Below the pieces are notes generated by a model. That model saw only the letters and a program-made list of their open reading frames with translations. It ran no database searches and was not told the origin of the DNA. Made by a program: the position numbers and the translations under genes. Positions 1 through 38,933 of a DNA stretch of 64,000 bases are shown here, one piece after another. Every line of letters begins with the position of its first letter. Positions within the stretch are counted from its first letter, which is position 1. This stretch comes from an uncultured Bacteroidaceae bacterium (GTDB lineage: Bacteria; Bacteroidota; Bacteroidia; Bacteroidales; GCA-2748055), in contig CAZGTU010000014.1 in the NCBI GenBank assembly GCA_964528675.1, positions 2,083 to 66,082 on the forward strand, read 5' to 3'.

Positions 1-435
1 ATAGCCGTCCAGGTAAGGAAAGATTATCTGGTCGAAGAAGGTCGCCCCGACAGGTTTCTTCGCAAGGGGGATTCCTTTTGCGTAAGCAGTGAGAGAACCA
101 TCCGGGTTTTTTTCAGGCCGGAACCAATTTGGATAGTAGGCAGAACTGCCGTCGGAAAGTGATATTGGATACCAGTCACTATCTTTATCGTTAAAACTTC
201 TTCCGATATCCATTACATCAATTTTGAACCGGTCGAGAATTATATCCTCCGTTTGAGCCAATTCCTGAACTACATCGTAAATGCGTGTCCTGCTGTTTTC
301 TATGTTAAGATGCCTTGTCAGATTGTTATAGGCAATGGCCGATATCCCAGAGCTGGGTGTTGATCCCAGATCAATAGGCACCTTTTTGGTTTCAGTATGA
401 TTTATTGCCGATAATATGGTCTCTCGGGATGTCAT
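1..435 (-). CDS. URO-D/MtaA-superfamily protein, N-terminal part (gene runs off the left edge)
   Basis: My own translation from the ATG at 435-433 gives MTSRETILSAINHTETKKVPIDLGSTPSSGISAIAYNNLTRHLNIE... The VPIDLGS..SGI segment parallels VAVDLGSSGTTGI at the N-terminus of the neighbouring 560-1819 protein, so this is a tandem paralog. It is not in the ORF track because it is truncated by the window edge. Confidence 0.6.
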   Translation of the reverse strand, partial: MTSRETILSAINHTETKKVPIDLGSTPSSGISAIAYNNLTRHLNIENSRTRIYDVVQELAQTEDIILDRFKIDVMDIGRSFNDKDSDWYPISLSDGSSAYYPNWFRPEKNPDGSLTAYAKGIPLAKKPVGATFFDQIIFPYLDGY

Positions 436-559: not shown

Positions 560-1819
560 TTAAGAATTTATTTCCTTTAATGTTTCGATCATGGTCACAA
601 CATTTTCAACAGGTACATTGGCCTGAATATTATGCACAGTGTTAAACACAAAACCTCCGTCTTTGCCAAAAATTTCACAATGACGTAAGACTTCTTCCCT
701 GACTTGTAGCGGTGTTCCAAATGGAAGAGTTTGCTGAGTATCAATACCCCCACCCCAGAATGTAAGTTTTTGGCCGTATTTCTTTTTGAGATGTACCGGA
801 TCCATCCCCTTGGCATTCACCTGAACAGGGTTTATTATGTCGAATCCGGCATCAATAAACCGGTTCATAAATCCTTCCACTGCACCACATGAATGTTTAA
901 AGGTTTTCCAGGCAGTATGCTCATGTATCCAGTCGTTAATTCTTTGGTAATAAGGCAGCCATAAATCATCAAATTGCTCCGGTGAACAAAAAGTCGAATC
1001 CTGGGTACCAAAATCAGTACCGCAAATAAAAACTACATCAATATTATTTCCTATGCCTTTATAAATCAGCTCCATATTTTTTACTGCAATTTCACTTTGC
1101 CTGTCAAAAACTTCCCGGAGATAATCAGGACGAACAATGGTACTCATATACCATTCTGCTACACTTCTTATTCCTTTTGGATTTTTAAGTTGCATTCCCG
1201 GAACAAATGCAATATCTCCCAATGCTGTTCCCCCAAGAGCTGCAATTACACCTTTGCCCGATGACCTGGCTTTCTTTGTTTCTGTTTTTAAGTAGGAAAC
1301 ATCTGAATCCGAAACTATTGTAAATTCTTCCAGGTTATCAGAAGGATCCAGTTCTTCTTCTACAATGGCTTGCTGGCGCTCAATTGCATCAAAAAAGTAT
1401 CCGGTTTTAGGCATGACGGCAGAAGGATTTGATTTATCATCACCATCAGGATATGAATACAGATTTCCATTTTCATTAACCGAAGTGTTAAATTTTTCCG
1501 GTACCAGTAATTCCTGTCCCCAAAAGGCTTTGAATGATTTTAAGGGTGGCTGATTAGAATAACCTAACATGTTATTCTTTCCCCAGACACCAACCACATC
1601 AGTCCCGATAAGGTCTATTAAGTCATCTTCAACCAATCCCAGCATTTGATAGGGTTCAATAACTCTTACCGGCCTGTTTTCAAGTCCATAATACTTCCGC
1701 AGGCCTTCAATTATTTTAACATGTATACCGGTAGTTCCAGAGGAACCCAAATCAACAGCGACGCCACCTGGGTCCTTGTGCACTAATGTTTTACGCAATT
1801 TTTCCTGAGGACTTTTCAT
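560..1819 (-). CDS. Uroporphyrinogen-decarboxylase-like (URO-D/MtaA superfamily) protein, long form, no signal peptide
   Basis: 419 aa. Contains FKHSCGAVEG (H-x-C), FDIINPVQ and a downstream RHCEIFGKDGG, which is the typical C-terminal half of the PF01208-type TIM barrel. ATG start. Confidence 0.75.
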   Translation of the reverse strand: MKSPQEKLRKTLVHKDPGGVAVDLGSSGTTGIHVKIIEGLRKYYGLENRPVRVIEPYQMLGLVEDDLIDLIGTDVVGVWGKNNMLGYSNQPPLKSFKAFWGQELLVPEKFNTSVNENGNLYSYPDGDDKSNPSAVMPKTGYFFDAIERQQAIVEEELDPSDNLEEFTIVSDSDVSYLKTETKKARSSGKGVIAALGGTALGDIAFVPGMQLKNPKGIRSVAEWYMSTIVRPDYLREVFDRQSEIAVKNMELIYKGIGNNIDVVFICGTDFGTQDSTFCSPEQFDDLWLPYYQRINDWIHEHTAWKTFKHSCGAVEGFMNRFIDAGFDIINPVQVNAKGMDPVHLKKKYGQKLTFWGGGIDTQQTLPFGTPLQVREEVLRHCEIFGKDGGFVFNTVHNIQANVPVENVVTMIETLKEINS

Positions 1820-6063: not shown

Positions 6064-7080
6064 CTAAGCAAATATTGCCTCAATATTTGCGGGGTTGATG
6101 TCGGGAAGTATTGCCTCGTGACTGGGAGAGATAATTAGACCAGTTGGAAAAACAGCTTTCAGTTCTTCAACTTTTTTCCTGATCATTTCAGGAGTTCCGT
6201 TAATGAGTAACTCCTGGGCATCCACGCCCCCGCAAAATGATACCTGATCGCCAAAATTCTCTTTTAACCTCCATGGCTCCATGTTTTTTGCAAGCGCCTG
6301 GATGGGATGAATGACATCGGCCCCGGTTTTTATGATCGCGGGAAGCAAGTCAAATACAGAACCGCATGAATGATGAATTACGGTTAATCCAAAAGCATGA
6401 GCCTGCTCCACCAGAAGGGCTGTGCCGGGAAGAACATATTGTTCAATTAGTACAGGATCAACAAGCGAACCTGTCTGCGTACCAAAATCATTTCCGATCA
6501 GGACCGCATCCAGTTCACCTTTGGTGGCTTCATAGAAAACCGCGTTCGCCTCAAGATAAAATTTTGTTATCCTGTCCATTACCGCCATGAACATTTCCGG
6601 TTCAGTGTACATTTTTATCAATGCCGTTTCCATCCCGAAAGCGGAACAAGCATCCTGAAAATGAGCCGACCACATCATCCCCATGGCAATTTTATCATTT
6701 GGGATTGCATTTACCCGCCGACGGCTCTCTTCTTTATCAATATATTTTACTGGATCCGGCCATTCGAACATTTCCACTTCTGCCGGATCTGAAACAAGTT
6801 CAAAATGCCCCGGATCGGTTAATGTCTGGTGTTTATCAATGGATTTATCCTGCCGGAAATCAAAGGCGCCCGCGATATGGTTGCCATAAGGTGATGAATA
6901 GGGCACATCCACGGGCCAGATATCATCGTCAATTTTAACTTTAAGCTCTTCAATTGAACTGGCTTCAAAATAAGAAAAAAGATCGGGTAGGGCAGCCTCA
7001 TCGGGATAGCCCAACCAGCTTGCATTTCTATCAACAGCTTTTCTTTCAATTGTGAGATGAAATCTTTCCTTGCTATTCAT
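6064..7080 (-). CDS. URO-D/MtaA-superfamily protein, short form, no signal peptide
   Basis: Track ORF 6064-7086 begins at a TTG. The ATG at 7080 gives MNSKERFHLTIERKAVDR... Motifs IHHSCGSVFD (H-x-C) and DVIHPIQ. The sulfatase stop TGA lies 2 nt before this ATG. Confidence 0.75.
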   Translation of the reverse strand: MNSKERFHLTIERKAVDRNASWLGYPDEAALPDLFSYFEASSIEELKVKIDDDIWPVDVPYSSPYGNHIAGAFDFRQDKSIDKHQTLTDPGHFELVSDPAEVEMFEWPDPVKYIDKEESRRRVNAIPNDKIAMGMMWSAHFQDACSAFGMETALIKMYTEPEMFMAVMDRITKFYLEANAVFYEATKGELDAVLIGNDFGTQTGSLVDPVLIEQYVLPGTALLVEQAHAFGLTVIHHSCGSVFDLLPAIIKTGADVIHPIQALAKNMEPWRLKENFGDQVSFCGGVDAQELLINGTPEMIRKKVEELKAVFPTGLIISPSHEAILPDINPANIEAIFA

Positions 7081-7082
7081 GA

Positions 7083-8663
7083 TCAAGGGGTTTCAGATAA
7101 AGACTTCAGCATTACCTGTTCTTTCCAAAGTTTTCTCATTTCCTTCAATTTGTCCTTTGAACCAGGATTCAGGGCAAGATTGGTTAATTCCATAGAATCT
7201 TCATTACAATTATACAATTCTTCCATATCGTTGGTATAAAAACAATATTTCCACCCATCTTTTTTAACCATGGCAGAACGACCATTGACTGTATAATCTA
7301 AAAACCAGGTAGTACCATCTTCTTCAATTCTTTTTTGACGGAATGGTTCAAAATCTTCAAAGCTCATTGGATCAGGAGGGGATTCCGGCAAACCAACCTC
7401 GCAAAAAACAACATCCCGGTGATGATCTTCACTCGTTCCATTTAAAACACCCATAAATGATTTTCCCTTAATTCCTTCCTGCTTTTCAAAGCCCATGTAT
7501 TCCATTACCGTAGGCATTACATCAATGTTTTCAAATTGTGCATTATACACATTCCCTCCTTCAATACCCGGAAGATGAACAATAAGTGGAATCCTTACAA
7601 GGACATCATAAAAGGCTTTTGTTTTACCTATTAATCCGTACCTTCCGCCAAAATTACCATGGTCAACAGTGAAAACCACAACTGTATTTTCATACAACCC
7701 CAGCTCTTCTAATTTATCCATAAGCATACCAATAGCTTTATCGCAAAAGCTAACCTGACCATACATGGTAGCCAGGATTCTTTTACGCTCAGCCTCCGTA
7801 TATTTATCATAGCCTTGTGATTGAGATTGCACGTAATGCGCGAAAGGGTGAGTTGACCAGTCAATATTCAGTCCTTCCAGTTCAAGACTATCAGGATTAT
7901 ACATTGAATAATAAGGCTCAGGTACCACGTTGGGCCAGTGAGGATCAGGAAAGGAATAGTGAAGGAAAAAGGGTTTATTTTGATTTTCTTCAAGGAAGCG
8001 AAGACCATCTTCGGCTATGCGGTAGGTCATGGCTTCTTCTTCTTCAAACGGCATTGGGCCTTCAATCAAACCTTCACTTAATATGGCTCCTTCATGGTCG
8101 GGAGCAGAGGGTTTAAAATCCGGTCTTTTTTCTGTATGGCGATATTCATATATTGCACTGTCTTTCTTAATATAAGTACCATGCATTTTACCAAAATGAC
8201 CATATTCCTCACGAAAATCAAAATATTTTTCCATGTATTCATCATTGAAACAATGATTTTTTCCTGCCAGGCCAATCATATAACCGGCATTTTTAAGTGT
8301 TTCAATATATGACCATTGATCAGGAGACATATGAAAAGGCATGGTCACGAACCTGCAGCCATGTTGCATGGTATATTTACCTGTGAAAAAACTTGCACGG
8401 CTGGGCGTACATATCGGAGAAACTGTGTATCCATTCGTAAATACATTTGCTTCTTCTGCCAGCCGGTCAATATTGGGAGTTTTTATAACGGGGTGATTCA
8501 TGTAACCAAACTGATCATGACGATGTTCATCCAGTTTAATGACAATAAGGTTTATGTGATCATTTTCCGTATTACCTGTCTGTTTTTCTTCTTGCTGGCA
8601 GGCTGTAAGAGCAATAGCCCCGGTGAACACACAGGCGGAATAGAAAGTTGTTAAATTTTTCAT
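7083..8663 (-). CDS. Cys-type sulfatase (S1 family), lipoprotein signal
   Basis: Formylglycine motif CTPSRASFFTGKY. N-terminus MKNLTTFYSACVFTGAIALTAC looks like a lipobox. The track ORF extends to 8708, but that would overlap the upstream GH94 stop, so the internal ATG at 8663 is preferred. Confidence 0.88.
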   Translation of the reverse strand: MKNLTTFYSACVFTGAIALTACQQEEKQTGNTENDHINLIVIKLDEHRHDQFGYMNHPVIKTPNIDRLAEEANVFTNGYTVSPICTPSRASFFTGKYTMQHGCRFVTMPFHMSPDQWSYIETLKNAGYMIGLAGKNHCFNDEYMEKYFDFREEYGHFGKMHGTYIKKDSAIYEYRHTEKRPDFKPSAPDHEGAILSEGLIEGPMPFEEEEAMTYRIAEDGLRFLEENQNKPFFLHYSFPDPHWPNVVPEPYYSMYNPDSLELEGLNIDWSTHPFAHYVQSQSQGYDKYTEAERKRILATMYGQVSFCDKAIGMLMDKLEELGLYENTVVVFTVDHGNFGGRYGLIGKTKAFYDVLVRIPLIVHLPGIEGGNVYNAQFENIDVMPTVMEYMGFEKQEGIKGKSFMGVLNGTSEDHHRDVVFCEVGLPESPPDPMSFEDFEPFRQKRIEEDGTTWFLDYTVNGRSAMVKKDGWKYCFYTNDMEELYNCNEDSMELTNLALNPGSKDKLKEMRKLWKEQVMLKSLSETP

Positions 8664-19723: not shown

Positions 19724-20572
19724 ATGTCAAAGTTATTAGGTATTACTTGCCTGCTTATCTTTTTATTCACTGTTGTAAACACGACTGCTATATTCGGACA
19801 GACCCGGAATGAAATTGAAAAGCACACGAAAAACAGGACTGAAAGACTTGAATGGTGGAATGAGGCACCTTACGGCATGTTTATTCACTGGGGAGTATAC
19901 GCACAACTTGCCAGTGAATGGCAGGAAAAAAGAGTTGAAGATGACGGCGAATGGATCATGTACCATGGAAAAATCCAGGTAAAGGAATATGAACAGGTTG
20001 CCGCCACTTTTAACCCAGTGAAATTTAACACTGAAGAATGGGTTAAAACCACTATAGACGCCGGCATGAAGTACATTGTAATATCCGCCAAGCACTGTGA
20101 CGGCTTCGCTATGTATGATTCTGATGCAAGTAATTATAATATGTTAGACTTCACACCTTTCAACCGGGATCCGCTTATGGAACTCAGAACTGCATGCGAC
20201 AAATATGGGTTGAAACTGGGATTCTATTATTCCCACGTTTGGGACTGGCACGAGCCAAATGCAAAAGTGCTGGACAATACCTGGGATTTCCCTGAAACTG
20301 ATAAAAAGGATTCCACCGTATACTTCGAGAAAAAAGCATTCCGCAAATTAGGGAACTGGATAGTAAATATTCCCCTATATAATGTGGTTTGACGTGCCAT
20401 CAAATATTCCTGATGAAAGGAGCTTGAGATACTAAAATTAATTAGAGAAATAAAACCAGATTGCATTATTAATGACAGGCCATATGACCAGGGTTTATTT
20501 CCTTCACAATCAGTCAAAATTATCAAAAGTGTTGGAAACTGGCTTCATTCAAACGGTGAATACATTATTTAA
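19724..20572 (+). pseudogene. GH29 alpha-L-fucosidase, decayed (frameshifts plus internal and C-terminal deletions)
   Basis: The N-terminal 222 aa are intact (WWNEAPYGMFIHWGVY, ISAKHCDGFAMYDS, GFYYSHVWDW). After about 20340 the homologous reading hops frames: QIRELDSKYSPI, then MWFDVPSNIPDERS, then LEILKLIREIKPDCIINDR. It then jumps straight to SVKIIKSVGNWLHSNGEYII*. In the intact paralog at 27519 that last segment lies about 90 aa further on. The C-terminal beta-sandwich is missing. Confidence 0.8.
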
Positions 20573-27518: not shown

Positions 27519-28931
27519 CTATTCCATCAAGATAAGTTTGATTACCGTGTCTGTTTTATCAGGTAACAAAATAGTATGTTGTGCAGGATCTTCAATGAAG
27601 TTGATAAATAAATCAGATTCATCAATGTAAGATCTTTCACCATGCCAGAAGTCAGCCATGAACATTTCCGTATCATCTCTCAAAAGAGTTGCCGATTCAA
27701 CCTTATTTTTAAGCCCCTCCAGGCATATTTGCCCTATGGATTGATCAAAAACATGGGCGTACAACAGCTTACCTTTTTGGGTGTAGCGACCCCATTCGGG
27801 CTTTTCAAATTCAGCGGCCTCACAGTCGTATATGCTTTCCGCGTTTTCTTCCATCCACTGACCAGTTTCTTTTAGCACTTTTACAGATTCCATGGGTATT
27901 CTGCCACGGGCATCGGGGCCAACATTAAGCAAAAGATTTCCGCCTTTTGAAACACAATTTACCAGCGTTTTTATCACCGTCCCGGCCGATTTATATTCAT
28001 CATCATTTCTTGCGTACCCCCAGTTATTATTTAAGGTAATACAAGCTTCCCACGGAATAGGCCTGCCCAGTTCATCTACTATGGGGCCTTTGGGTATAAT
28101 TTGTTCAGGTCCTTCAAAATCACCGGCATAATATTCCGGGTTTTCCAGTTCCATATTGCCCCCCAGCCTGTTATCAATGATAATTCCGGGTTGCAGTTCC
28201 CGGGTCATCTTAACTAATTTGGTTGCTTCCCATTTTTCTCCTGTCATTTCACCACAACTGAAATCGAACCACATGATATCAATTTTTCCGTAATTGGTAA
28301 GTAATTCCCGTGTTTGGTTATGCATATATTCCAGGTAGGAATTGAAATCCCTGTCTTCATTGCTATATCCTTCTTTTCCGGTCATGGGATGTATAACGCA
28401 GTCGCCATCAACAGGATAACCCGGATGATGCCAGTCGAGCAAAGAATAATAGAAACCTATTTTTAACCCTTCTGCCCTGAATGCATCCACGAATTCGCGG
28501 ATTAAATCACGCCCTGCAGGTGTATTGGTTGCTTTATAATCAGTGTATTTGCTATCAAATAAGCAAAATCCATCATGATGCTTGGCAGTAATAACCGCGT
28601 ATTTCATTCCTGCCTGTTTTGCCAGCTTTGCCCATTCGGCCGGGTTGTAATCAACCGGGTCAAAATTCTCGAAATACTCACGATACTCTTCATCGGTCAT
28701 TTTTTCCTGATACTTCACCCATTCTCCCCTGGCAGGTATAGCATAAATTCCCCAGTGGATGAACATGCCGAAGCGGGCGTCGCGGAACCATTCGGTTCGT
28801 TCTTGTCTTTCAGCATAGGATCCTTCCTTGTTTTCCTGTCCGGAAACATTGCTCATTACTAACATAATTGTCATACAAGTGATAAAAATTTTGTTTTTCA
28901 TGGATAATATTTTATAAATTTTTGTTTTCAT
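27519..28931 (-). CDS. GH29 alpha-L-fucosidase, secreted
   Basis: 470 aa. Motifs WFRDARFGMFIHWGIYAIP, ITAKHHDGFCLFDS and GFYYSLLDWHHP. Signal peptide; the start is 28931 or the ATG at 28901. Confidence 0.9.
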   Translation of the reverse strand: MKTKIYKILSMKNKIFITCMTIMLVMSNVSGQENKEGSYAERQERTEWFRDARFGMFIHWGIYAIPARGEWVKYQEKMTDEEYREYFENFDPVDYNPAEWAKLAKQAGMKYAVITAKHHDGFCLFDSKYTDYKATNTPAGRDLIREFVDAFRAEGLKIGFYYSLLDWHHPGYPVDGDCVIHPMTGKEGYSNEDRDFNSYLEYMHNQTRELLTNYGKIDIMWFDFSCGEMTGEKWEATKLVKMTRELQPGIIIDNRLGGNMELENPEYYAGDFEGPEQIIPKGPIVDELGRPIPWEACITLNNNWGYARNDDEYKSAGTVIKTLVNCVSKGGNLLLNVGPDARGRIPMESVKVLKETGQWMEENAESIYDCEAAEFEKPEWGRYTQKGKLLYAHVFDQSIGQICLEGLKNKVESATLLRDDTEMFMADFWHGERSYIDESDLFINFIEDPAQHTILLPDKTDTVIKLILME

Positions 28932-28934
28932 TAT

Positions 28935-30002
28935 TTATTGATGCTTCCAATCTCTTACAGCTTCCATTATTGCCATCAGATTTTCCCATGGTACCTCCGG
29001 TTCAACAAGGTGGGTAGGTCCTATGACGATTCCTCCATGTTCAGCACATTTGTTCAATCTGTTGGTTACCAAGCGGTAAACTTCATCCGGTTTGCCGAAA
29101 GGAAGGAGTTCCTGGGTTCCGATGGTACCCCAAAAGGATAAGCGCTCACCAAAACTATCATGAATTTCATTAAAATCCATACACTCAGGTTGAACAGGAT
29201 TTAATATGTCTACACCCGTTTTTATCAAATCATCAATAAAGGGGGTAACATATCCACAGGAGTGATAGAAAATCAAAATATCGGGCTTTACTTTCCGGGC
29301 TGTGTCAATAACTTTTTTAAGCCTGGGTTGCAGCCACCGTTTCCATAAGTCTTTATCGATCATTATACTTTTTTGCGTTCCGATATCGTCTCCAAGGCCC
29401 AGCACTTCAACCCCCGCTTCGGCATAAACCCGGGCTTTTTCACAGGCAAAATCTGAAATTTTATTAAGAAGCAACATCGCTTTTTCATCTTCCATAAGCA
29501 TATCCATCATGAGTTCTTCCATTGAACGCAAGTACCATGCAGATTCCCAGATAGTCATCTGCATCTTTGCATAAGCGGCCAGGTCTGTTTCGTGTAATTG
29601 CCGGACTGCTTGATTTAACTGACCAATTGCTTTTGCTGACAAGGACGGATATGGGTAAGAGGCAATTTCTTTCAAATCTGCTCCTTTCAACGGATGATGC
29701 ATCCGGGTCATGTGATAGGCGAGCTCAGAACCTTTTGAGTGGCCTACACCCATTGAATCAAAATTGGTATCAGCGGGTAATTCTTCTCTCGGAAAGAGTT
29801 TTCTTCCATCAGAAAAATTCCTGGCCACTTCAATTTCCAACGGCCGGTGCAATTGCCCGAAAAATGATTGATAATCCCGGTGACCAAACCTATTATAGAA
29901 ATCGTCCACCTGTGAATCACACAATTCGAAGTCAACAGGAATAATGTCCTGAAATCCCTCTCTCCGAAGTGTCTTTAAAAAACTATCTATTCTTGAACTC
30001 AT
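28935..30002 (-). CDS. URO-D/MtaA-superfamily protein, short form, no signal peptide
   Basis: 355 aa. Motifs FYHSCGYVTP (H-x-C), VDILNPVQ and a downstream NKCAEHGG. Its stop is 3 nt upstream of the GH29 start. Confidence 0.75.
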   Translation of the reverse strand: MSSRIDSFLKTLRREGFQDIIPVDFELCDSQVDDFYNRFGHRDYQSFFGQLHRPLEIEVARNFSDGRKLFPREELPADTNFDSMGVGHSKGSELAYHMTRMHHPLKGADLKEIASYPYPSLSAKAIGQLNQAVRQLHETDLAAYAKMQMTIWESAWYLRSMEELMMDMLMEDEKAMLLLNKISDFACEKARVYAEAGVEVLGLGDDIGTQKSIMIDKDLWKRWLQPRLKKVIDTARKVKPDILIFYHSCGYVTPFIDDLIKTGVDILNPVQPECMDFNEIHDSFGERLSFWGTIGTQELLPFGKPDEVYRLVTNRLNKCAEHGGIVIGPTHLVEPEVPWENLMAIMEAVRDWKHQ

Positions 30003-30087: not shown

Positions 30088-31173
30088 TTAGCATTTCTTC
30101 CGGATTCTTTTTGAAGTGATCTCGTATGCTGATTTCAGGTTTTCTGCGGAAACACCCTTCGGCACCGCGTCGCCGCTACCCAGGAAAAAATAGGGGCTCT
30201 CTGGCAAATCCTCAAGAAATTTTTCAACAGATTTTACAAAAGCATTATTATCCGGCATGGTAAACTGGTTGCACTCTATGCCACCGGCAATAACTTTTCC
30301 AGCATTCTCCATTATTTTTATTGCTTTCGAAAAATCACAGTCGCCTGTAGGTGGAGGGGATATTTCAATGATACCGTCAAATTTCCGTTCTGCTATTTCA
30401 TCAAGCAAAAGACTTATTTTACCACACATATGGATCAAAAGGGGTTTGTCGTATTCATGGGCCACATCGGCAAATTCATCAAGTTGCACGAATGCATAGG
30501 CTGAAATCCAGTCAGGCATGGAGTTACCCGTATTGGTATTTTCATAGCATATGATAACATCAGCCGGCGATTGCGCTGAAAACTCAACATATCGCTTCTT
30601 GTTTTTCATCATGGCCGCCATGGTTACTTCCAGCTCGGATGGATCTTCCATGTACATGAAGGTAAAATTCTCTATTCCTATCTGTTTGGTAAGCAGATCG
30701 TAAAAAGGTGAATCCTGCATGCTGGCCGATAAGATTTTTTCCGGGTACTTATTTTTGTAATATTCAGTTTTACTAAAATCAGCCACCGGTATGGTGTGTT
30801 CCTGCAGGTAGCGGAAAATTTTCAGGTCATCTACGCTCTTTATCAGGTATTCTATTGGGAAGGGAATGAATGGAGATTCGGGAACGTACCTTGAGACTTT
30901 CCTGATAGTCCCCAGCGGTGTTGAGAACTGTTCTGTTTCATATTCTCCTGCTCTTTCCTTTGAATGCACAATTGTTTCGTCGTAGGTATCCACATATGCT
31001 TCAACACCCCTTAACATATCACTGCCAAGCTCCATTTGCATTTCAATAATATGCTGGTTTTGAAATTTCTCAGGTAGTCCTGATTGGGCATAGCCGTCAA
31101 GGCAAGGAAAAAAAGGCATCTTTTTTATGCCTTTTTCATCCAGCAACCTGATAAACCGGTTTTTCTTATTCAT
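30088..31173 (-). CDS. Divergent URO-D-like protein
   Basis: 361 aa. LLIHMCGKISLLLDEIAERKFDGIIEISPP follows the H-x-C-G...l.e.g.d pattern of the family. The rest is too divergent to align by eye. Confidence 0.5.
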   Translation of the reverse strand: MNKKNRFIRLLDEKGIKKMPFFPCLDGYAQSGLPEKFQNQHIIEMQMELGSDMLRGVEAYVDTYDETIVHSKERAGEYETEQFSTPLGTIRKVSRYVPESPFIPFPIEYLIKSVDDLKIFRYLQEHTIPVADFSKTEYYKNKYPEKILSASMQDSPFYDLLTKQIGIENFTFMYMEDPSELEVTMAAMMKNKKRYVEFSAQSPADVIICYENTNTGNSMPDWISAYAFVQLDEFADVAHEYDKPLLIHMCGKISLLLDEIAERKFDGIIEISPPPTGDCDFSKAIKIMENAGKVIAGGIECNQFTMPDNNAFVKSVEKFLEDLPESPYFFLGSGDAVPKGVSAENLKSAYEITSKRIRKKC

Positions 31174-31326: not shown

Positions 31327-34300
31327 ATGATTTTTACAGCATTCAAATCTATAAAAATTAGTTATACCAACATGATGAAAGCTAAATTAGTATTGGTCCT
31401 CTTTCTTGTTTTCTCATTCACCATTCAAATATATCCACAGCAGGATTTCAGGGTTTCGGGTAAAGTGCTGGATGAGAATGGTTCACCCCTTATTGGGGTT
31501 AATGTTGTCGAAAAGGGAACCACAAATGGCACCGTTACAAATCTGGAAGGAACCTTTAATTTTAGTGTTTCAGGCCCTCAGTCTACTCTGGTTTTTTCAT
31601 TCATTGGTTATTTAAAAGAAGAAGTGATCCTAAACGGGCAGAATGAAATCCAGGTAAGTCTAATGCCTGATTTGAAGGAACTGGAAGAACTTGTATTCAT
31701 CGGATACGGAACGGTAAAAAAGGCGGATCTCACGGGTTCCGTTGAAGTACTTGAAACCGATCAAATATCAAAACTCCCGGTCAGAAGCCCGGAACAAGTT
31801 TTACAAGGGAAAGCCTCCGGTGTTTTCGTGGCAGCCAGTAGCGGAGCCCCAGGTGCACCGGTGTCTGTAAGGATCCGGGGCGTTGGAACACCCAATAATA
31901 CCGACCCTTTATACGTTGTTGACGGGATGCCGATTAAAGATGCCTCTTTTGGCAAAAATGACAACCCGAGTGGCATTAATTTTTTGAACCCATCTGATAT
32001 TGAATCCATACAGGTATTAAAAGATGCATCTGCTACAGCTATTTACGGTACCCGTGGAGCAAATGGGGTAATTATTATCACTACAAAGAAAGGGAAATCC
32101 GGAAAAGCAAAGGTTGATTTCAATTCATATTTTGGGTATCAGGAACTGCCCAAAAAGCTTGATATTTTGAATGCACAGCAATTTGCAACTCTATACAATG
32201 AAGCAATGGGTGAATATTATAGCCCGGATAGCATCCCTTTTCTGAAAACCACCGACTGGCAGGATGAAGTTTTTACTTTAGCCCCAATGCATAGTGAACA
32301 AATAAGTGTTTCAGGTGGTTCCGAGAAATCAACTTATTATATCAGCTTTAACAATTATTCGCAGGATGGAATTGTAAAGGAATCTTATTATGACAGATAT
32401 TCTTTCAGAGTTAATTCCGAATATGAAATTAATAAGTGGCTCAGAACAGGTCAACACCTAACCTTAACAAATTTTTTTAACCAGCGACAAAGGGAGGAAG
32501 GGTTGAATTCCGGATCCATAGTTGGAAACCCGATTATGGCTGCATTAAAAGCCAATCCAACTGTCCGGCCACGTGATGAGGAAGGCAATCTGAATTATAT
32601 ACCCCTGACCAGCGCCAGTAGCACTGTAAATCCTGTTGGTCTCATTGAAAACAGACATTACAGTTATAATAATAACAGGATCCAGGGTTCTGTATTTGTT
32701 GAAATTGAACCTCTTAAAAATTTGATATTTAAACTAAATGGCGGTATAGACCGTAGTTGGGGTTTCCGTAAAGAAGTATGGCCGGAATATAAAATTGCCA
32801 ATGAAGATGCCTCGGAAAACACCTTACTTATTACTGAACATGAAGATTGGTACAATTATCTTCTTGAAAGCACACTCAATTATAATTTTGAATTAGCCAG
32901 TAATCACACTTTTAATTTCCTATTTGGTGTTACAAGGCAGGAAGAAGTTAAATCGCCCGTGGTTTCCAGTTCTTACCTCCCTTCGCCTGTAGAGGATATG
33001 CTGTACCATTCGGCCAGAACATCAATTGACGACGTGATTCAGCTTGGCGGTTCACCATTGGAATGGTCGCTTTTATCGTACCTGGGCAGGATTAATTACA
33101 ATTTCAGGAGCAAATATCTCTTAACAGCTAGCATAAGGCATGATGGATCATCCCGTTTTGGGCCTAATAAAAGGTTTGGAACCTTTCCTTCCTTCGCATT
33201 TGGGTGGAAGGTTTCTGAAGAATCGTTTATGGACAATGTTTCCCTGATTTCAATGCTAAAAGTGCGTGGAGGTTGGGGTATAGTAGGTAATCAAAATATT
33301 GATCCTTACCTGTACAGGTCAAAAGTCACTTTTCAGCCCGACAGAGGATTGCCAGGACCTGTTGTTTTTTACGGAGTACCAGCCCGGCCTCATCCGGCCG
33401 CTTTTTTCGATGGATTACCTAATCCCGATATCGGCTGGGAAACTACCGAAACCTATAACCTCGGTATTGATCTAACATTATTGGATAATAGAATTGCAGC
33501 CACGATTGACTTTTATGACAAAACAACCAGCGATATACTACTTTTTAATCCCGTACCCTTATGGGGTGGTGCAGATGCCGCGGTAATTAAAAGCGGACAA
33601 ATAAAAAATACGGGGATCGTTAACAATAAAGGTATAGATGTATTACTTACCTACAAGAATTCTGTCGGGGATTTCTTTTATGAAATCGGGGGTAATTTTT
33701 CATATTTAATTAATGAAGTTATAGACATGGAAGATGGTGCACCTTTATCATCGGATACCGACTTTCCCGTGAGAATGATAGAAGGTAAACCCATTGGTGC
33801 ATTTTACGGATACGTGGCAGAAGGCATATTTAAAAGTGAAGAAGAAATTCAAAATCATGCCATGCAGGAAAGAAGAACGGGAGTTGGAGATTTGAAATTT
33901 AAGGATTTGAATTTAGATGGGGTAATCAATTCAGCCGATCAAACAACTTTAGGATTTGCTTTGCCTGATTTTACCTATGGCATCAACCTGAATTTTGCAT
34001 ACAAGAATGTTAGTCTTGATATTCTCGCCCAGGGAATACAGGGCAATTCCATTGCTAACATGGTGAAAAGAAACGCTTTATATAACCTGCGAATGACCTC
34101 CAATGTAAGCACTGATCTACTTAACGCTTACGGCAGGGAAAATGAAGACGGCACCATCGTGACGGACACAGACATTCCCCGCATCGTTGGAAGAAGAGAT
34201 AATAATGATAATGACAGAATCTCTGCTTTTTATCTTGAAGATGGTTCATATTTCAGATTAAAAAATATTAGCCTGGCATATCAGTTTCCTGAAAAAATGA

Positions 34301-34497
34301 TCCGGAAACTGGGTTTAAATAACCTGAGAATTTACGGTACGATTCAAAACTTACATACATTTACCAGGTATAGTGGTTATAATCCTGAAATAGGGGTTTC
34401 CTCTGCCTTCAATGCCAATCCTCTCGCATTTGGTATTGATAATGCAGTGTATCCCATACCCCGAACCTACCTGTTGGGTATTAATATCGGGTTATAA
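31327..34497 (+). CDS. SusC-like TonB-dependent outer membrane transporter (second copy)
   Basis: 1056 aa. The N-terminal region is clearly paralogous to the first SusC (FRVSGKVLDENGSPLIGVNVVEKGTTNGTVTNLEGTF; IESIQVLKDASATAIYGTRGANGVIIITTKKGK). The likely start is the ATG at 31372 (MMKAKLVLVLFL). Confidence 0.95.
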   Translation: MIFTAFKSIKISYTNMMKAKLVLVLFLVFSFTIQIYPQQDFRVSGKVLDENGSPLIGVNVVEKGTTNGTVTNLEGTFNFSVSGPQSTLVFSFIGYLKEEVILNGQNEIQVSLMPDLKELEELVFIGYGTVKKADLTGSVEVLETDQISKLPVRSPEQVLQGKASGVFVAASSGAPGAPVSVRIRGVGTPNNTDPLYVVDGMPIKDASFGKNDNPSGINFLNPSDIESIQVLKDASATAIYGTRGANGVIIITTKKGKSGKAKVDFNSYFGYQELPKKLDILNAQQFATLYNEAMGEYYSPDSIPFLKTTDWQDEVFTLAPMHSEQISVSGGSEKSTYYISFNNYSQDGIVKESYYDRYSFRVNSEYEINKWLRTGQHLTLTNFFNQRQREEGLNSGSIVGNPIMAALKANPTVRPRDEEGNLNYIPLTSASSTVNPVGLIENRHYSYNNNRIQGSVFVEIEPLKNLIFKLNGGIDRSWGFRKEVWPEYKIANEDASENTLLITEHEDWYNYLLESTLNYNFELASNHTFNFLFGVTRQEEVKSPVVSSSYLPSPVEDMLYHSARTSIDDVIQLGGSPLEWSLLSYLGRINYNFRSKYLLTASIRHDGSSRFGPNKRFGTFPSFAFGWKVSEESFMDNVSLISMLKVRGGWGIVGNQNIDPYLYRSKVTFQPDRGLPGPVVFYGVPARPHPAAFFDGLPNPDIGWETTETYNLGIDLTLLDNRIAATIDFYDKTTSDILLFNPVPLWGGADAAVIKSGQIKNTGIVNNKGIDVLLTYKNSVGDFFYEIGGNFSYLINEVIDMEDGAPLSSDTDFPVRMIEGKPIGAFYGYVAEGIFKSEEEIQNHAMQERRTGVGDLKFKDLNLDGVINSADQTTLGFALPDFTYGINLNFAYKNVSLDILAQGIQGNSIANMVKRNALYNLRMTSNVSTDLLNAYGRENEDGTIVTDTDIPRIVGRRDNNDNDRISAFYLEDGSYFRLKNISLAYQFPEKMIRKLGLNNLRIYGTIQNLHTFTRYSGYNPEIGVSSAFNANPLAFGIDNAVYPIPRTYLLGINIGL

Positions 34498-34521
34498 TTT
34501 TTTTTAACTATCCATTAGAAA

Positions 34522-36219
34522 ATGAGTAAAATGAAAAGATTAATAAAAATTGGTTTCATAATAATTATAAGTACAGTGGTGTTTTGGGGTTGTTCTGAAG
34601 AATTTCTTGATAAGCCCATTCCTCCCGGCCAACAAACGGATGTCTCTCTTTATAAGACAGCGGATGGGTTGAGTTATCTTTTAAACCTGGGTTATATGGG
34701 ATTGTCAGAGTATTTTGATACTGACGCTCACTTTCCAATATGTCATCTGACCCTTGGTAGCATCAGGAGCGACGATGCCTGGTCAGGAAAAGGTGTTGTT
34801 TTATATTGGGAAGCCTTTGATATCAACAATTTCCTTCTTTTCCCTGATAATCAGTTTGTTTATGGTTTGTACAAATCACATTATTTATCGATAAGATATT
34901 GTAACTCGGTTATTAACAACGCGAATTTCGCCTTCGAAAATCCCGGGCAGGATGAGGAAAGGATACATAACTTAGTTGCTCAGGCTAAAACCCTGAGAGC
35001 CTTTAATTATTTTTCACTGGCCCGCGCATTTGGCGACGTAGTTTTAATTCTTGATGCCAGTATAACCAAGCGCCCCAGAGACCCGGTAAGTATAATATAT
35101 GACCAGGCAGTCGGGGATCTAACAGAGGCAATAGAATCCGGAGCGTTAAAGAGAAGGGATGAATTACCTTCAGAGCAACTGGGGCAAATTACAATTGGCG
35201 CCGCACGTGCGATCCTTGCTAAAACATACATGTACATGGCCGCGGAAGAACCTGGAAATGCTGATGGATATTACAGATCGGCCTACAATGAAGCAAAAAT
35301 GGTTATTGAAAGTGGAGAATATCAGTTATATTCCAATTATGGAGATTTATGGCAGTTTGATTCACAATTTGGCCCGGAATCTATCTTTGAGATAGGTTAT
35401 CCCGAACCCGGAGAGAATTTTTTACAGCATCATTGGTGGGCAAGCTGGATGCGCCCTCTGTACGTGTATAAGCCCGGAACCCGGGAAAAAATGGGCACCG
35501 ATGCTTACCGCGGTTGGGGACATAACACGCCAACCCAGGATTTCGTAAATGCGTTTGAAGAGGGCGATCCCAGGTTACACTGGTCGGTTTGGTTTCCCGG
35601 TGATTCAACCGCCGGATTAACTGAAGGAGATGAATTGCATGAAATTTGTTTCATAGCGAGTGAAAGCGGTTACTATTTCAGAAAAACCACACCAGAACAG
35701 TTTATCCCGAGTGTTAAGTCTTTTCTCGGTTTTAAAATCTACCGATATGCCGATTTATTGTTAATAGGAGCTGAGGCTGCCAATGAAATTGGAGAAACCG
35801 CAGATGCACTGGCCTGGTTAGAAATGGTAAGACAACGAGCACGTGAAACATCTGCTCCTTTTGGCCACGGAACAGATAAAATCGAGGGAATACCCTCCGT
35901 AGTTACTACTACAAACCAGTCTGAACTGCGTGAAATTATCAGACATGAACGAAGAGTAGAGCTGGGCGGGGAAGGCGACAGGTTTTATGATCTAAAAAGA
36001 TGGCACGGTACGTATGGTTATGACCTTGCAAATATTATCAATACAGCCAATATGGTTCCAGGTCCGGATTACCTGATTACCATAAATGAAAATCTTTCAG
36101 GCCAGCCCAGGGAACCAGAAGATGTAGTAGTCGATCTTCCCAAACACTTGTTATTACCCATACCAAAGGTGGAAATTACCATCAACAATGGTATAATTAA
36201 GCAGAACCCAGGATATTAA
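34522..36219 (+). CDS. SusD/RagB-family glycan-binding lipoprotein (second copy)
   Basis: 565 aa. Lipobox VFWGCSEE, RFYDLKRW and a C-terminal NPGY. Confidence 0.9.
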   Translation: MSKMKRLIKIGFIIIISTVVFWGCSEEFLDKPIPPGQQTDVSLYKTADGLSYLLNLGYMGLSEYFDTDAHFPICHLTLGSIRSDDAWSGKGVVLYWEAFDINNFLLFPDNQFVYGLYKSHYLSIRYCNSVINNANFAFENPGQDEERIHNLVAQAKTLRAFNYFSLARAFGDVVLILDASITKRPRDPVSIIYDQAVGDLTEAIESGALKRRDELPSEQLGQITIGAARAILAKTYMYMAAEEPGNADGYYRSAYNEAKMVIESGEYQLYSNYGDLWQFDSQFGPESIFEIGYPEPGENFLQHHWWASWMRPLYVYKPGTREKMGTDAYRGWGHNTPTQDFVNAFEEGDPRLHWSVWFPGDSTAGLTEGDELHEICFIASESGYYFRKTTPEQFIPSVKSFLGFKIYRYADLLLIGAEAANEIGETADALAWLEMVRQRARETSAPFGHGTDKIEGIPSVVTTTNQSELREIIRHERRVELGGEGDRFYDLKRWHGTYGYDLANIINTANMVPGPDYLITINENLSGQPREPEDVVVDLPKHLLLPIPKVEITINNGIIKQNPGY

Positions 36220-36385: not shown

Positions 36386-37510
36386 TCAAGATTTTACGTG
36401 TTTAATTATATCATCGGCCTCCGTTTTCGTTATCGGTTCGTCAAATGGATTTACATTTAATAACAGACCTTCCGGTGATAATGCATTTAAAAGTTCCTCG
36501 ATTTCACTTTTATCGATGTTAAGGATGAGGCATTTACCGGCTTCCTGGATTTTTTTAAGGACCGGTATATGCCTGACATTTTCACAGTTGGTTTGTGGGT
36601 TCCATTGTATTCCGTGCAGGTTTGGTATGTTCATTAAAAAGTCGAGGTGCCGGATAATCTCATCGGGGCCGTCGAAATGGAACATCACATGATCCAAATG
36701 ATCGCACATGGATCTGATGTCATTCAAAATAAATTCTTCATACTGATCAGTAGAAATCATGGTCATATAATCCGATTGAATACAGAAAGTCCTTCCGGGC
36801 CCCCACAGATTGAGCCAGGCTGTTCCATTTCCTTCGATATACGACTGTTGGATAGTTAATAATTCATCAACCCAGTATTTCCATAGCCTCATGATTTCTT
36901 TGCCGGCCTGTTTAACCTTATCGGGCACCATAAGCAAATCCAGCGCGAGTTTTTCGCTTCCGCGTAAAAGCATTAGGGTATCAATGCCATTGAAGATATC
37001 CACAGGTATTTCTGATAGAATGTTATTATCATGGGCTGCTTGTGCCGAATATTTAACAATGTTTTTCTGAATGTTCCACCAGATGTTTCTTTCATCAAAT
37101 GCCAGGGGGGTATTGTCCCAATCTTCAAGATTTTCATGAAACCAGGTAGGTTCATCCGGGGTTCTCAAATCTACAACGGCACCTAGAAATGCCGAACAGA
37201 TGCCCGGTCCAATAGCAGTTGTCAGGACAGGCAATGTTTCCCCGGCAAAATACATATATTTAAAACTTTCCAGTTGATGATCGATTTTAATCTGAGGGTC
37301 TGCCTTTAAATGAAAGGCGCTGAGGTATCGTTTATCCTGTTTTATCTTCTCGAGATAACGGAAATATCCTGTTTTATCCTTATATGCATTTACTGAAACC
37401 AGTGGTTTTTTATTATTCAGGTCCCAGAAAAGCTTAAATGTATGTTTTGAATATTCTATGTGTTCCCTTATGCCGTGCATGTTAAACATTATTAATTGTT
37501 GTTTTTTCAA
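36386..37510 (-). CDS. Hypothetical cytoplasmic protein, possibly a distant URO-D-like TIM barrel
   Basis: 374 aa. SDYMTMISTDQYEEFILNDIRSMCDHLDHVMFHFDGPDEIIRHLDFLMNIPNLHGIQWNP mimics the D..g..isp..f.ef...H.CG...l...g.d pattern, but the H-x-C is replaced by H-F-D. Sits 13 nt downstream of the MFS gene stop. Confidence 0.4.
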   Translation of the reverse strand: MKKQQLIMFNMHGIREHIEYSKHTFKLFWDLNNKKPLVSVNAYKDKTGYFRYLEKIKQDKRYLSAFHLKADPQIKIDHQLESFKYMYFAGETLPVLTTAIGPGICSAFLGAVVDLRTPDEPTWFHENLEDWDNTPLAFDERNIWWNIQKNIVKYSAQAAHDNNILSEIPVDIFNGIDTLMLLRGSEKLALDLLMVPDKVKQAGKEIMRLWKYWVDELLTIQQSYIEGNGTAWLNLWGPGRTFCIQSDYMTMISTDQYEEFILNDIRSMCDHLDHVMFHFDGPDEIIRHLDFLMNIPNLHGIQWNPQTNCENVRHIPVLKKIQEAGKCLILNIDKSEIEELLNALSPEGLLLNVNPFDEPITKTEADDIIKHVKS

Positions 37511-37523
37511 TGGACAATTTGCT

Positions 37524-38933
37524 TCACTTATTCATTGACCGGGTTAGTGAAATTTGTACCTGTTCATCCGTGGGTTCATTTTCGGGAGGTTGTTTTATCA
37601 ATTTTTTCTCCAGTTCCTCGAGAGATACTCCTTTGGTTTCTGGAAATACACAAACAGCAAAAAGCAATGTTATTGCTGCAAAAAACGCGTATGAAAGAAA
37701 AGTCACGGTTTTACCCAAAAACTCAATTTCCCATGGAAAAATAAAGGTTACTCCAAAACTTATTATAGAAGCCAACAATCCGGCCAGTGAAATTCCCACA
37801 CCTCTGTATTTATTTGGAAATACCTCCGACAAAAATACCCATAATACCGGTCCAAGTGACACGGCAAATGAAGCCACATAAACCATAACAGCAATCAGAA
37901 CCCCGTAACCCGAAAACCTGTCGAAATAAGAAAACAATGCAAGACAAACCAGAGAAACTGTCAGACCGGCACTGCCTATGATTAATAAGGGTTTGCGGCC
38001 CAGTTTGTCAATAATGGACATGGCAATAATAGTAAACACAAGATTTGTAAGACCCACTATTGCAGACTGCATAAAAGCGGCATCTTTACCAATGCCGGTT
38101 TTTTCAAAAATAATCGGGGCATAATACAGCACAGCGTTGATGCCTGTTATTTGTTGTAGAAAGCTGATAGCCATCGCCAGGAAAAGTATATATGACATTT
38201 TTCGACTAAATAATCCGACTACCAGTTTGCCGGTCTTTTCTTTTTGTTTATACCGTATACTTTCCTGTATTTCTTTTAATTGTGTTTCTGCATAGATTAT
38301 TGTGCCTACTTTTTTTAATACCTTAAAGGCATCCTGTGTCCGGTTTTTATGCACCAGCCACCGAGGACTGTGGGGTACGAATATGAGTAGCACGAAATAC
38401 GCCACGGCGGGAAATGTCTCGACACCCAGCATCCATCTCCAGTTATTTTCCCCGGTATTTAACAGGAAATAATTTGAAAAATAGGCTACGAAAATGCCAA
38501 TGACAATATTTAACTGGTTGAACGAAACCATTTTGCCCCTAATACCTGGAGGGGATATTTCAGCAATGTATACTGGTGCAATTAATATTGCTCCGCCAAC
38601 ACCAAGGCCTCCAACCATCCTGGCAATAATTAAAAACCAAAATTCATGTGCAATAGCTGAAGTTACTGCCGAAATGGCAAAAAATACGGCTGTCATCTTC
38701 AGTACTTTTTTTCTTCCCATTCTGTCACTTAAGGGTCCGGAAAATGCATTGCCAACGATTACCCCAATGATGAAGGAGCTAACGGTCCAACCGGTTTGTA
38801 ATTCATTCAGGACAAAATAATCACTCATAAATGGAATTGCTCCGCTAATAACAGCACTGTCAAATCCCAATAAAAACCCTCCAAGAGCAACCACCAATGA
38901 AATGAAAAATATGTATCCTTTATTATAGTCCAT
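37524..38933 (-). CDS. MFS sugar porter family permease (second copy)
   Basis: 469 aa. Motifs GPLSDRMGRKKVL, PHSPRWL and PETKGVSLEELE. Confidence 0.9.
   Translation of the reverse strand: MDYNKGYIFFISLVVALGGFLLGFDSAVISGAIPFMSDYFVLNELQTGWTVSSFIIGVIVGNAFSGPLSDRMGRKKVLKMTAVFFAISAVTSAIAHEFWFLIIARMVGGLGVGGAILIAPVYIAEISPPGIRGKMVSFNQLNIVIGIFVAYFSNYFLLNTGENNWRWMLGVETFPAVAYFVLLIFVPHSPRWLVHKNRTQDAFKVLKKVGTIIYAETQLKEIQESIRYKQKEKTGKLVVGLFSRKMSYILFLAMAISFLQQITGINAVLYYAPIIFEKTGIGKDAAFMQSAIVGLTNLVFTIIAMSIIDKLGRKPLLIIGSAGLTVSLVCLALFSYFDRFSGYGVLIAVMVYVASFAVSLGPVLWVFLSEVFPNKYRGVGISLAGLLASIISFGVTFIFPWEIEFLGKTVTFLSYAFFAAITLLFAVCVFPETKGVSLEELEKKLIKQPPENEPTDEQVQISLTRSMNK

Follow-up and report, generated by a model that had tools for sequence, protein, structure and literature searches.

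The closest described relative of the proteins considered here is MtaA, the thiol-methylating methyltransferase 2 (MT2) of Methanosarcina (4AY7/4AY8), a triosephosphate isomerase (TIM) barrel of the uroporphyrinogen decarboxylase (URO-D) type whose zinc ligands, placed on the 4AY7 sequence, are His240, Cys242 and Cys319, with Glu263 nearby. HemE, which belongs to the same Pfam family, carries a His at the position of the third of these ligands and is not known to bind a metal. The URO-D fold also recurs in the donor-side methyltransferase 1 (MT1) components of bacterial O-demethylases and dehalogenases, some of which contain zinc and some of which do not (PMC13222342). Here we describe a URO-D-superfamily protein of 355 amino acids, devoid of a signal peptide, which is encoded on the minus strand (28935..30002; Pfam URO-D, 85.4 bits) of a 64,000-nucleotide stretch of an uncultured Bacteroidaceae genome (hereafter, the window). 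Six URO-D-like open reading frames (ORFs) are present in the window, including one partial ORF at 1-435, and each protein is referred to below by the start coordinate of its gene. Sequence comparison, a predicted structure and the gene context of relatives lead us to lean towards a reading of the 28935 protein as a donor-side corrinoid methyltransferase with a His/Cys(Asp)/His metal site, which would demethylate imported methyl-sugars.

MtaA is the best match of the 28935 protein in both sequence and fold, its H-x-C motif aligns residue for residue, and the 28935 protein is likewise predicted to work with a separate corrinoid protein. However, the two proteins are ~17% identical, the third ligand position is occupied by His rather than Cys, Gln replaces an acidic residue, and the Cys of H-x-C is an Asp in most relatives of the 28935 protein; furthermore, MtaA methylates a thiol, whereas the 28935 protein is predicted to act on a sugar as an MT1. 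By fold and operon logic, in which an MT1 is accompanied by a corrinoid protein, an activase and an acceptor-side enzyme, and by the predicted transfer of an ether methyl to Co(I), the 28935 protein resembles OdmB, VdmB, MtvB, MtoB and CdmB, although these act on aromatic methyl ethers or chloromethane and have hydrophobic pockets, whereas the pocket here is polar and the setting is glycan uptake (PMC13222342). PDB sequence and fold searches with the 28935 protein yielded neither a reference sequence nor a structure of OdmB, VdmB, MtvB or CdmB. HemE shares the fold and a conserved His after the last strand, but has neither H-x-C/D nor a corrinoid partner. MetE, with its His-Cys-Glu-Cys zinc site, is a weaker fold match from the same superfamily which displays a comparable layout of H-x-C, acidic residue and ligand on consecutive strands; it differs in having two barrels, a Cys as the last ligand and Glu rather than Gln, and in taking methyl directly from methyl-folate without a corrinoid. 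The 28935 protein lacks the MetE-type Glu and Cys ligands and has Gln271 and His331 in their places.

The initial annotation of the window had proposed that an H-x-C motif and a distal Cys in these proteins form the zinc site of an MT2 methyltransferase rather than resembling HemE. All of the strings that it quoted were recovered from ORFs of the minus strand: FYHSCGYV at residue 245 and NKCAEHGG at residue 317 of the 28935 protein, FKHSCGAV at 307 and RHCEIFGKDGG at 379 of the 560 protein, IHHSCGSV at 237 of the 6064 protein, IHMCGKIS at 247 of the 30088 protein, and H-F-D at 278 of the 36386 protein. The H-x-C string and the distal Cys string are spaced by 72 residues in both proteins that have them, which agrees with the value given for the 560 protein (~72) but not with that given for the 28935 protein (~78). 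The combination of an H-x-C with a Cys 60-90 residues further on arises by chance in 1-4% of shuffled sequences. As judged from the alignments, the H-x-C itself is no chance match, being a single set of aligned columns shared by four paralogs and aligned with the H-I-C of MtaA (4AY7) as well as with the H-x-C of canonical MtaA-like proteins. The proposed affinity to MtaA rather than to HemE was borne out by family scores: four of the five full-length paralogs match Pfam URO-D, and in all four the NCBIfam models of the MtaA/CmuA type outscore hemE. For the 28935 protein, mtaA_cmuA yields 65.6 bits and hemE 20.8 bits, both far under the curated cut-offs; those of the MtaA families are missed at 65.6 versus 235.4 bits (TIGR01463) and 55.2 versus 400 bits (NF040654). 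A HemE function for this protein was rejected both by score, given the hemE equivalog cut-off of 302.95 bits, and by context, which includes GH29, SusC/D and transporter genes and no haem pathway.

PDB searches, with phmmer using the protein and with a profile of 22 orthologs, matched only MtaA of Methanosarcina mazei (4AY7, E ~2e-6). Both alignments pair FYHSCGYV with VLHICGNV, so that H247 and C249 fall on the zinc-binding His and Cys of MtaA, and pair the third MtaA ligand, the Cys of APGCG, with H331 of IGPTHL, while C319 is opposite an Ala of MtaA in the preceding helix. The pairing was unchanged when the 22 orthologs were compared by hhalign (probability 98.9%) with four MtaA-like proteins that all end in G-C-[D/E], two of them encoded on contigs C37 and C238 of the window's own genome, one in genome G030 and one at locus L045: H331 is opposite the Cys of SGGC and C319 opposite a Glu. 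Hence, the H-x-C half of the earlier claim holds in three independent alignments for H247/C249 of the 28935 protein and H309/C311 of the 560 protein, whereas the distal Cys (C319 and C381, respectively) aligns with Ala or Glu in a helix, and it is H331 and H396 (the latter in the motif NTVH) that take the position of MtaA Cys319. From these comparisons, H247, C249 and H331 very probably stand where MtaA has its three protein-derived zinc ligands.

The placement of these residues in the AlphaFold2 model of the 28935 protein (predicted local distance difference test, pLDDT, 90.4; predicted template-modelling score 0.90) is consistent with the alignments. H247-S248-C249 (codons at 29256..29264, minus strand) lies at the C-terminal end of beta strand 243-247; Q271-P-E273-C274 (29181..29192, minus strand; NPVQPEC) follows strand 266-268 and aligns with V-E-E of MtaA, with Q271 sitting where MtaA-like proteins have an acidic residue; and H331 (29010..29012, minus strand; GPTH), the proposed third member of the site, is located in the loop after the last barrel strand, 325-327. 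By contrast with these, C319 (29046..29048, minus strand; NKC) resides inside helix 305-322, three residues before its end, and in a TIM barrel that helix end lies opposite the catalytic face; on the model, C319 is no ligand candidate. The better, C-terminal half of a weak model of the 560 protein likewise has C381 in a helix (370-384) and H396 after a strand (389-391). C274 was considered as an alternative distal Cys and may serve as such, being better conserved than C249 across the family, and Q271 may likewise belong to the site. Foldseek with the 28935 model ranked MtaA 4AY7 first (template-modelling, TM, score 0.69-0.72), followed by uroporphyrinogen decarboxylases (TM 0.6-0.69) and, more weakly, MetE.

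The same positions can be followed through the paralogs, all on the minus strand. The 560 protein (560..1819; 419 amino acids; Pfam URO-D, 51 bits) has H309-S-C311 at 887-895, Q333 at 821-823, H396 at 632-634 and C381 at 677-679, and the 6064 protein (6064..7086; 340 amino acids; 73 bits) has H239-S-C241 at 6364-6372, Q263, and H323 (SPSH) at 6118-6120. The 30088 protein (30088..31173; 361 amino acids; 31.1 bits) is a divergent paralog with H248-M-C250 and Asp335 (GSGD) in the third position, and the 36386 protein (36386..37510; 374 amino acids), assigned through its alignment with the paralogs, has H278-F-D280 and D357; it is the one full-length paralog that gave no Pfam match. Thus, the 28935, 560 and 6064 proteins have His in the third position, for which the 30088 and 36386 proteins have Asp. 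The sixth paralog, of which the window holds the N-terminal part (1..435), is 412 amino acids long on the full contig and displays the pattern HSCG...Q...NTVH. In the alignment of the paralogs the distal Cys residues of the 28935 and 560 proteins are not positionally equivalent, being offset by three residues from a GG anchor, and the 6064 protein has no Cys at the distal position.

Conservation was examined in 80 orthologs of the 28935 protein from genome assemblies (44-78% identity), in 118 cluster representatives of the wider family (30-63% identity) and, for the 560 type, in 29 homologs encoded by genomes of the same order. H247, Q271, E273 and H331 are present in all 80 orthologs, and C249 and C274 in 78 each. 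Across the 118 representatives, H247 is retained in 112, Q271 in 115, H331 in 96 (with N or Q in a further 17) and C274 in 79, whereas the position of C249 is occupied by Asp in 79 and by Cys in 37. Consistently, H-x-C and Q are found in all 29 homologs of the 560 type and the last His in 28. The distal Cys behaves differently: C319 is invariant among the 22 closest orthologs (≥60% identity), but over the 80 orthologs the position is Cys in 48, Ala in 28 and another residue in four, and among the wider representatives it is Cys in eight and mostly V, L or F; C381 is replaced by I, L, M or V in several 560-type orthologs, one of them at 59% identity. The distal Cys is accordingly not conserved among orthologs, which refutes the part of the earlier claim that made it the third ligand. 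A His-rich motif in the N-terminal part of the 28935 protein, GHSKGS...(A/F)HMTRMHHP (residues 87-97 and 97-103; 29712-29745 and 29694-29714), is invariant in the orthologs, with H97 found in 80 of 80, and the model falls below a pLDDT of 50 nowhere but at residues 93-97; the motif may act as a mobile lid or contribute a further ligand.

Read from these alignments, the clade is marked by H-x-[C/D] where one barrel strand ends, by a Gln following the next strand and by a His following the last. A FastTree phylogeny sets the H-x-[C/D]...Q...H clade (Shimodaira-Hasegawa-like support 95), which includes the 28935, 560 and 6064 proteins, apart both from the MtaA-like H-x-C...C proteins and from the 30088 and 36386 proteins, which sit on long branches, and within the clade Cys and Asp have interchanged at least nine times. 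The initial annotation had suggested from its H-F-D that the 36386 protein may have different chemistry or none; since most members of the wider clade carry H-x-D, H-F-D is not by itself evidence of lost or different function, and it is at other signature positions that the 36386 protein differs from the clade. The clade comprises 7,133 cluster representatives at E≤0.001 and has members in Bacteroidales, Kiritimatiellia, Lentisphaeria, Planctomycetota, Spirochaetes and Clostridia. It lies outside the coverage of a published study of Mlp gene clusters, which dealt with closer relatives of MtaA (>25% identity) (PMC10418091).

The gene context of relatives supports a tie between the 28935/560 family and corrinoid methyl transfer. 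A gene for a corrinoid protein abuts the 28935 ortholog in 11 of the 80 loci, and 13 have one no further than 10 kb away; CobW is encoded in eight loci, the activase RACo in three, and a sodium/solute symporter family (SSF) transporter within 10 kb in 17 of the 80. Orthologs are accompanied by genes for a corrinoid protein, its activase and an enzyme of the acceptor side at loci L004/L049, L013 and L045 and, for the 560 type, at L127/L128. At L004, where the ortholog is 63% identical to the 28935 protein, an AraC gene is followed by genes for a corrinoid protein, RACo, the ortholog, a major facilitator superfamily (MFS) sugar transporter and a FucU-like protein, and this cluster is divergent from genes for formate-tetrahydrofolate ligase, a pterin-binding methyltransferase, methylenetetrahydrofolate reductase and two more URO-D paralogs; a cluster of the same type surrounds the 71% identical ortholog of L049. 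The reductase, pterin-binding and corrinoid-protein genes of the metagenome contig L004 (2425-8421) are each split by frameshifts; as the L049 versions are intact, these look like errors of long-read assembly and not like pseudogenisation. The 78% identical ortholog of genome G396 is found with PurU, GH3, RACo, GH29, a DUF362 protein and two more paralogs, and a homolog of the 36386 protein follows CobW at L038.

The operon at L045 (9283-16524) encodes, in order, a corrinoid protein, the 28935 ortholog, an MtaA-like protein with a thioredoxin domain, CobW, a homocysteine S-methyltransferase and a DUF2961 protein, and the first five genes are joined by 1-bp gaps or short overlaps. This arrangement is reminiscent of MtgBCD of Ruegeria pomeroyi, a split MetH-like system in which a separate corrinoid protein carries methyl from a donor enzyme to homocysteine or folate (PMC12478193), but the donor of MtgBCD is a glycine betaine methyltransferase of the MttB type in aerobes, whereas the URO-D-fold proteins belong to anaerobic glycan degraders. 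Co-localisation of COG0523/CobW proteins with zinc-dependent corrinoid methyltransferases is already on record (PMC2770081). For the 560 type, a corrinoid-protein gene is adjacent in two of the five genomes inspected: in G030 (L127, G030:C66 1-10655), a FecR gene is followed by those for the 560-type protein, a corrinoid protein, a Met_synt_B12-like protein, a canonical MtaA-like protein (HNC...SSGCD), SusC and SusD, and in G388 the order is sugar transporter, corrinoid protein and 560-type protein. L127 is thus a complete corrinoid methyl-transfer module inside a polysaccharide utilisation locus (PUL), with a MetH-activation-like protein in place of RACo. Other orthologs adjoin GH2, GH3, GH9, GH20 or GH89 genes, and some adjoin unrelated genes. 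Among 201 genomes of the order, the family is present in 35, RACo in 14 and both in 13; this co-occurrence is supportive only, because related genomes are not independent.

The genome from which the window derives has 17 URO-D matches in all and encodes the presumptive partners on other contigs. Contig C52 (109-2541) carries a gene for RACo (517 amino acids, with an N-terminal 2Fe-2S motif) after that for a Met_synt_B12-like protein of 232 amino acids, which is 39% identical to its counterpart in the G030 PUL; C52 begins just upstream of the latter gene, so that any adjoining methyltransferase genes are unassembled. Contig C238 (1-4146) encodes a small DxHxxG corrinoid protein, an MtaA-like protein with a thioredoxin domain (F-x-C...PGCD) and CobW, and contig C37 a canonical protein with LHICG...SGGCE. 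The C238 and L045 operons look like a dismantled MetH with URO-D-fold donor modules, and that of L045 includes a gene of the 28935 type. The strongest Pfam URO-D matches of the genome, at 219 and 208 bits (C37:4682-5707 and C238:855-2219), are to these MtaA-like proteins with H/F-x-C...G-C, not to HemE, and none of the 17 matches is a convincing uroporphyrinogen decarboxylase.

The initial annotation had also assigned the 28935 and 560 proteins an MT2-like, nucleophile-activating role. In the operons described above, however, the true H-x-C...C MtaA-like proteins are products of separate genes; because the acceptor-side enzymes, namely pterin-binding, canonical MtaA-like and homocysteine methyltransferases, are encoded separately, the H-x-[C/D]...Q...H proteins are best read as MT1. 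According to the scheme that we propose, exported glycosidases, such as the GH29 enzyme of the window, would release O-methylated sugars, which MFS or SSF transporters would import. The cytoplasmic URO-D-like enzyme would then bind the methyl-sugar, and the ether oxygen would be polarised by a divalent metal at the His/Cys(Asp)/His site or by the three side chains themselves in the role of an acid; in the MT1 role, the metal or acid would thereby activate the leaving group. The methyl would pass to Co(I) of the corrinoid protein, for which the window's own genome offers candidates on contig C238 (corrinoid protein) and contig C52 (RACo), and then to tetrahydrofolate or homocysteine. Of the components of this scheme, dependence on a corrinoid is likely; binding of a metal at the predicted site is slightly favoured; and the chances that the putative substrate is a methyl-sugar are about even. 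Conserved residues of the pocket in the 118 representatives are polar (D205, D206, Q210, E153, R159 and Q297), and such a pocket would accommodate a sugar more readily than an aromatic ether. The GH29 and FucU-like neighbours weakly suggest methyl-fucose as the substrate of the 28935 type.

Several observations weigh against this reading. The window itself holds no corrinoid protein, activase or acceptor-side methyltransferase, and the partners are scattered over other contigs of a fragmented assembly (337 contigs). There is no corrinoid-protein gene within 10 kb in 67 of the 80 ortholog loci, RACo is lacking from nine genomes with 560-type orthologs, and outside Bacteroidota the neighbours are mixed (GH20, GH89, GntR, pyridoxal-phosphate-dependent decarboxylases, MatE). 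The CobW of the operons could instead act on the MtaA-like or homocysteine methyltransferases encoded with it. It is from homology and topology that H247, C249 and H331 are predicted to converge on one site, and the 560 model, built on a five-sequence alignment, reaches a pLDDT of 58. The incomplete corrinoid linkage, together with the consistent adjacency of transporters and glycosidases and the HemE-like His after the last strand, could be accommodated by a sugar-modifying URO-D-fold enzyme that makes no use of corrinoids, such as a decarboxylase without a cofactor or a metal-dependent isomerase, with imported sugars or uronates as its substrates; the corrinoid neighbours seen in some genomes would then be incidental. 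We consider this improbable in view of the translationally coupled pairs of corrinoid protein and ortholog in 11 loci and of the 560-type pairs in two of five genomes, the presence of the family in 13 of the 14 RACo-encoding genomes, and the scores, which favour MtaA over HemE.

A more serious alternative, though still an unlikely one, retains the corrinoid MT1 role and dispenses with the metal: H247, C249 (or Asp), Q271 and H331 would form a network of hydrogen bonds and general acids that binds the sugar and protonates the ether oxygen, a mode of action that has been proposed for URO-D-fold MT1 enzymes devoid of zinc. The His in the third position, as in HemE, which is not known to bind a metal, speaks for such a network and against the metal site, as does the occurrence of N or Q at this position in 17 of the 118 relatives. 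Asp stands in place of the Cys in 79 of them, and both CdmB and the MT1 of a Moorella O-demethylase (MtvB) operate without zinc (PMC13222342). Nevertheless, two of the three residues fall exactly on MtaA zinc ligands, an exchange of Cys and Asp beside a constant pair of His is typical of metal ligands, and a CobW-type chaperone is encoded in eight of the ortholog operons. The reading from which the analysis departed, a canonical H-x-C-x(n)-C zinc site of an MT2, completed by C319 or C381 and activating a thiol nucleophile for methyl from a methyl-corrinoid, fares far worse and is now very improbable. Although the motif strings do exist at an MtaA-like spacing and C319 is invariant in the 22 closest orthologs, C319 is situated in a helix opposite Ala or Glu rather than the MtaA Cys, it gives way to Ala in 28 of 80 orthologs and is Cys in eight of 118 representatives, C381 is replaced by aliphatic residues or Met in several 560-type orthologs, the 6064 paralog has no distal Cys, and the operons themselves contain other genes for genuine H-x-C...C proteins. 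Collectively, these considerations leave a donor-side methyltransferase with a His/Cys(Asp)/His metal site as the reading that we prefer.

The remainder of the window is a glycan-utilisation region of the Bacteroidota type, with two SusC/D pairs, three or four GH29 fucosidases, GH3 and GH94 enzymes, a sulfatase and MFS sugar transporters. A three-gene operon opens with the 30088 paralog, continues with the 28935 gene and closes, 3 bp downstream of the latter, with a GH29 alpha-L-fucosidase that has a signal peptide (27519..28931, minus strand; Pfam Alpha_L_fucos, 334 bits). Divergent from this operon is a SusC/SusD-like pair (31327..36219, plus strand), recognised from its translations as a TonB-dependent receptor-like and a SusD-like protein. 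One MFS sugar transporter (37524..38933, minus strand) adjoins the 36386 paralog and a second (3984-5357) is located near the 560 paralog, with Pfam Sugar_tr scores of 390.8 and 409.2 bits for the two. An ORF at 19724-20392, encoding 222 amino acids, matches no more than the first half (positions 12-195) of the 345-position GH29 profile and is probably a truncated fucosidase remnant. Finally, a DUF362 protein with a C-terminal sorting domain of the type IX secretion system recurs beside URO-D paralogs, in the window (1977-3971) as well as at L013 (15045-16946), which is the locus of the 78% identical ortholog of G396 mentioned above, at L020 and at L049 (12793-13101); from its sequence it looks like a conserved surface-displayed partner of these paralogs.

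Methyl ethers on sugars, as in methyl-fucose, methyl-galactose and 4-O-methyl-glucuronate, stand in the way of glycosidases and of later catabolic steps. In marine Flavobacteriia, cytochrome P450 6-O-methyl-D-galactose demethylases remove such ethers in an oxygen-dependent manner; they would share the proposed job with the family described here, but have an unrelated fold and act oxidatively, as opposed to the anaerobic methyl transfer envisaged here. To our knowledge, oxygen-dependent P450s are the only known sugar demethylases, and the anaerobic glycan degraders of sediments and guts would have to deal with methylated sugars by other means. The literature that we searched describes neither corrinoid-dependent demethylation of sugars nor URO-D/corrinoid enzymes in PULs, although absence there is no proof of novelty. 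The reassignment of the site to His/Cys/His points to residues for mutation and sets the family apart from the true MtaA-like H-x-C...C partners encoded alongside it. It is conceivable, at somewhat less than even chances, that the clade represents the missing anaerobic sugar O-demethylase, a corrinoid-dependent, ether-cleaving MT1 with an undescribed His/Cys(Asp)/His metal site which would channel methyl from O-methylated fucose or other sugars to folate or methionine, and that its many paralogs, six in the window and ~15 per genome, would serve differing specificities for sugar and position.

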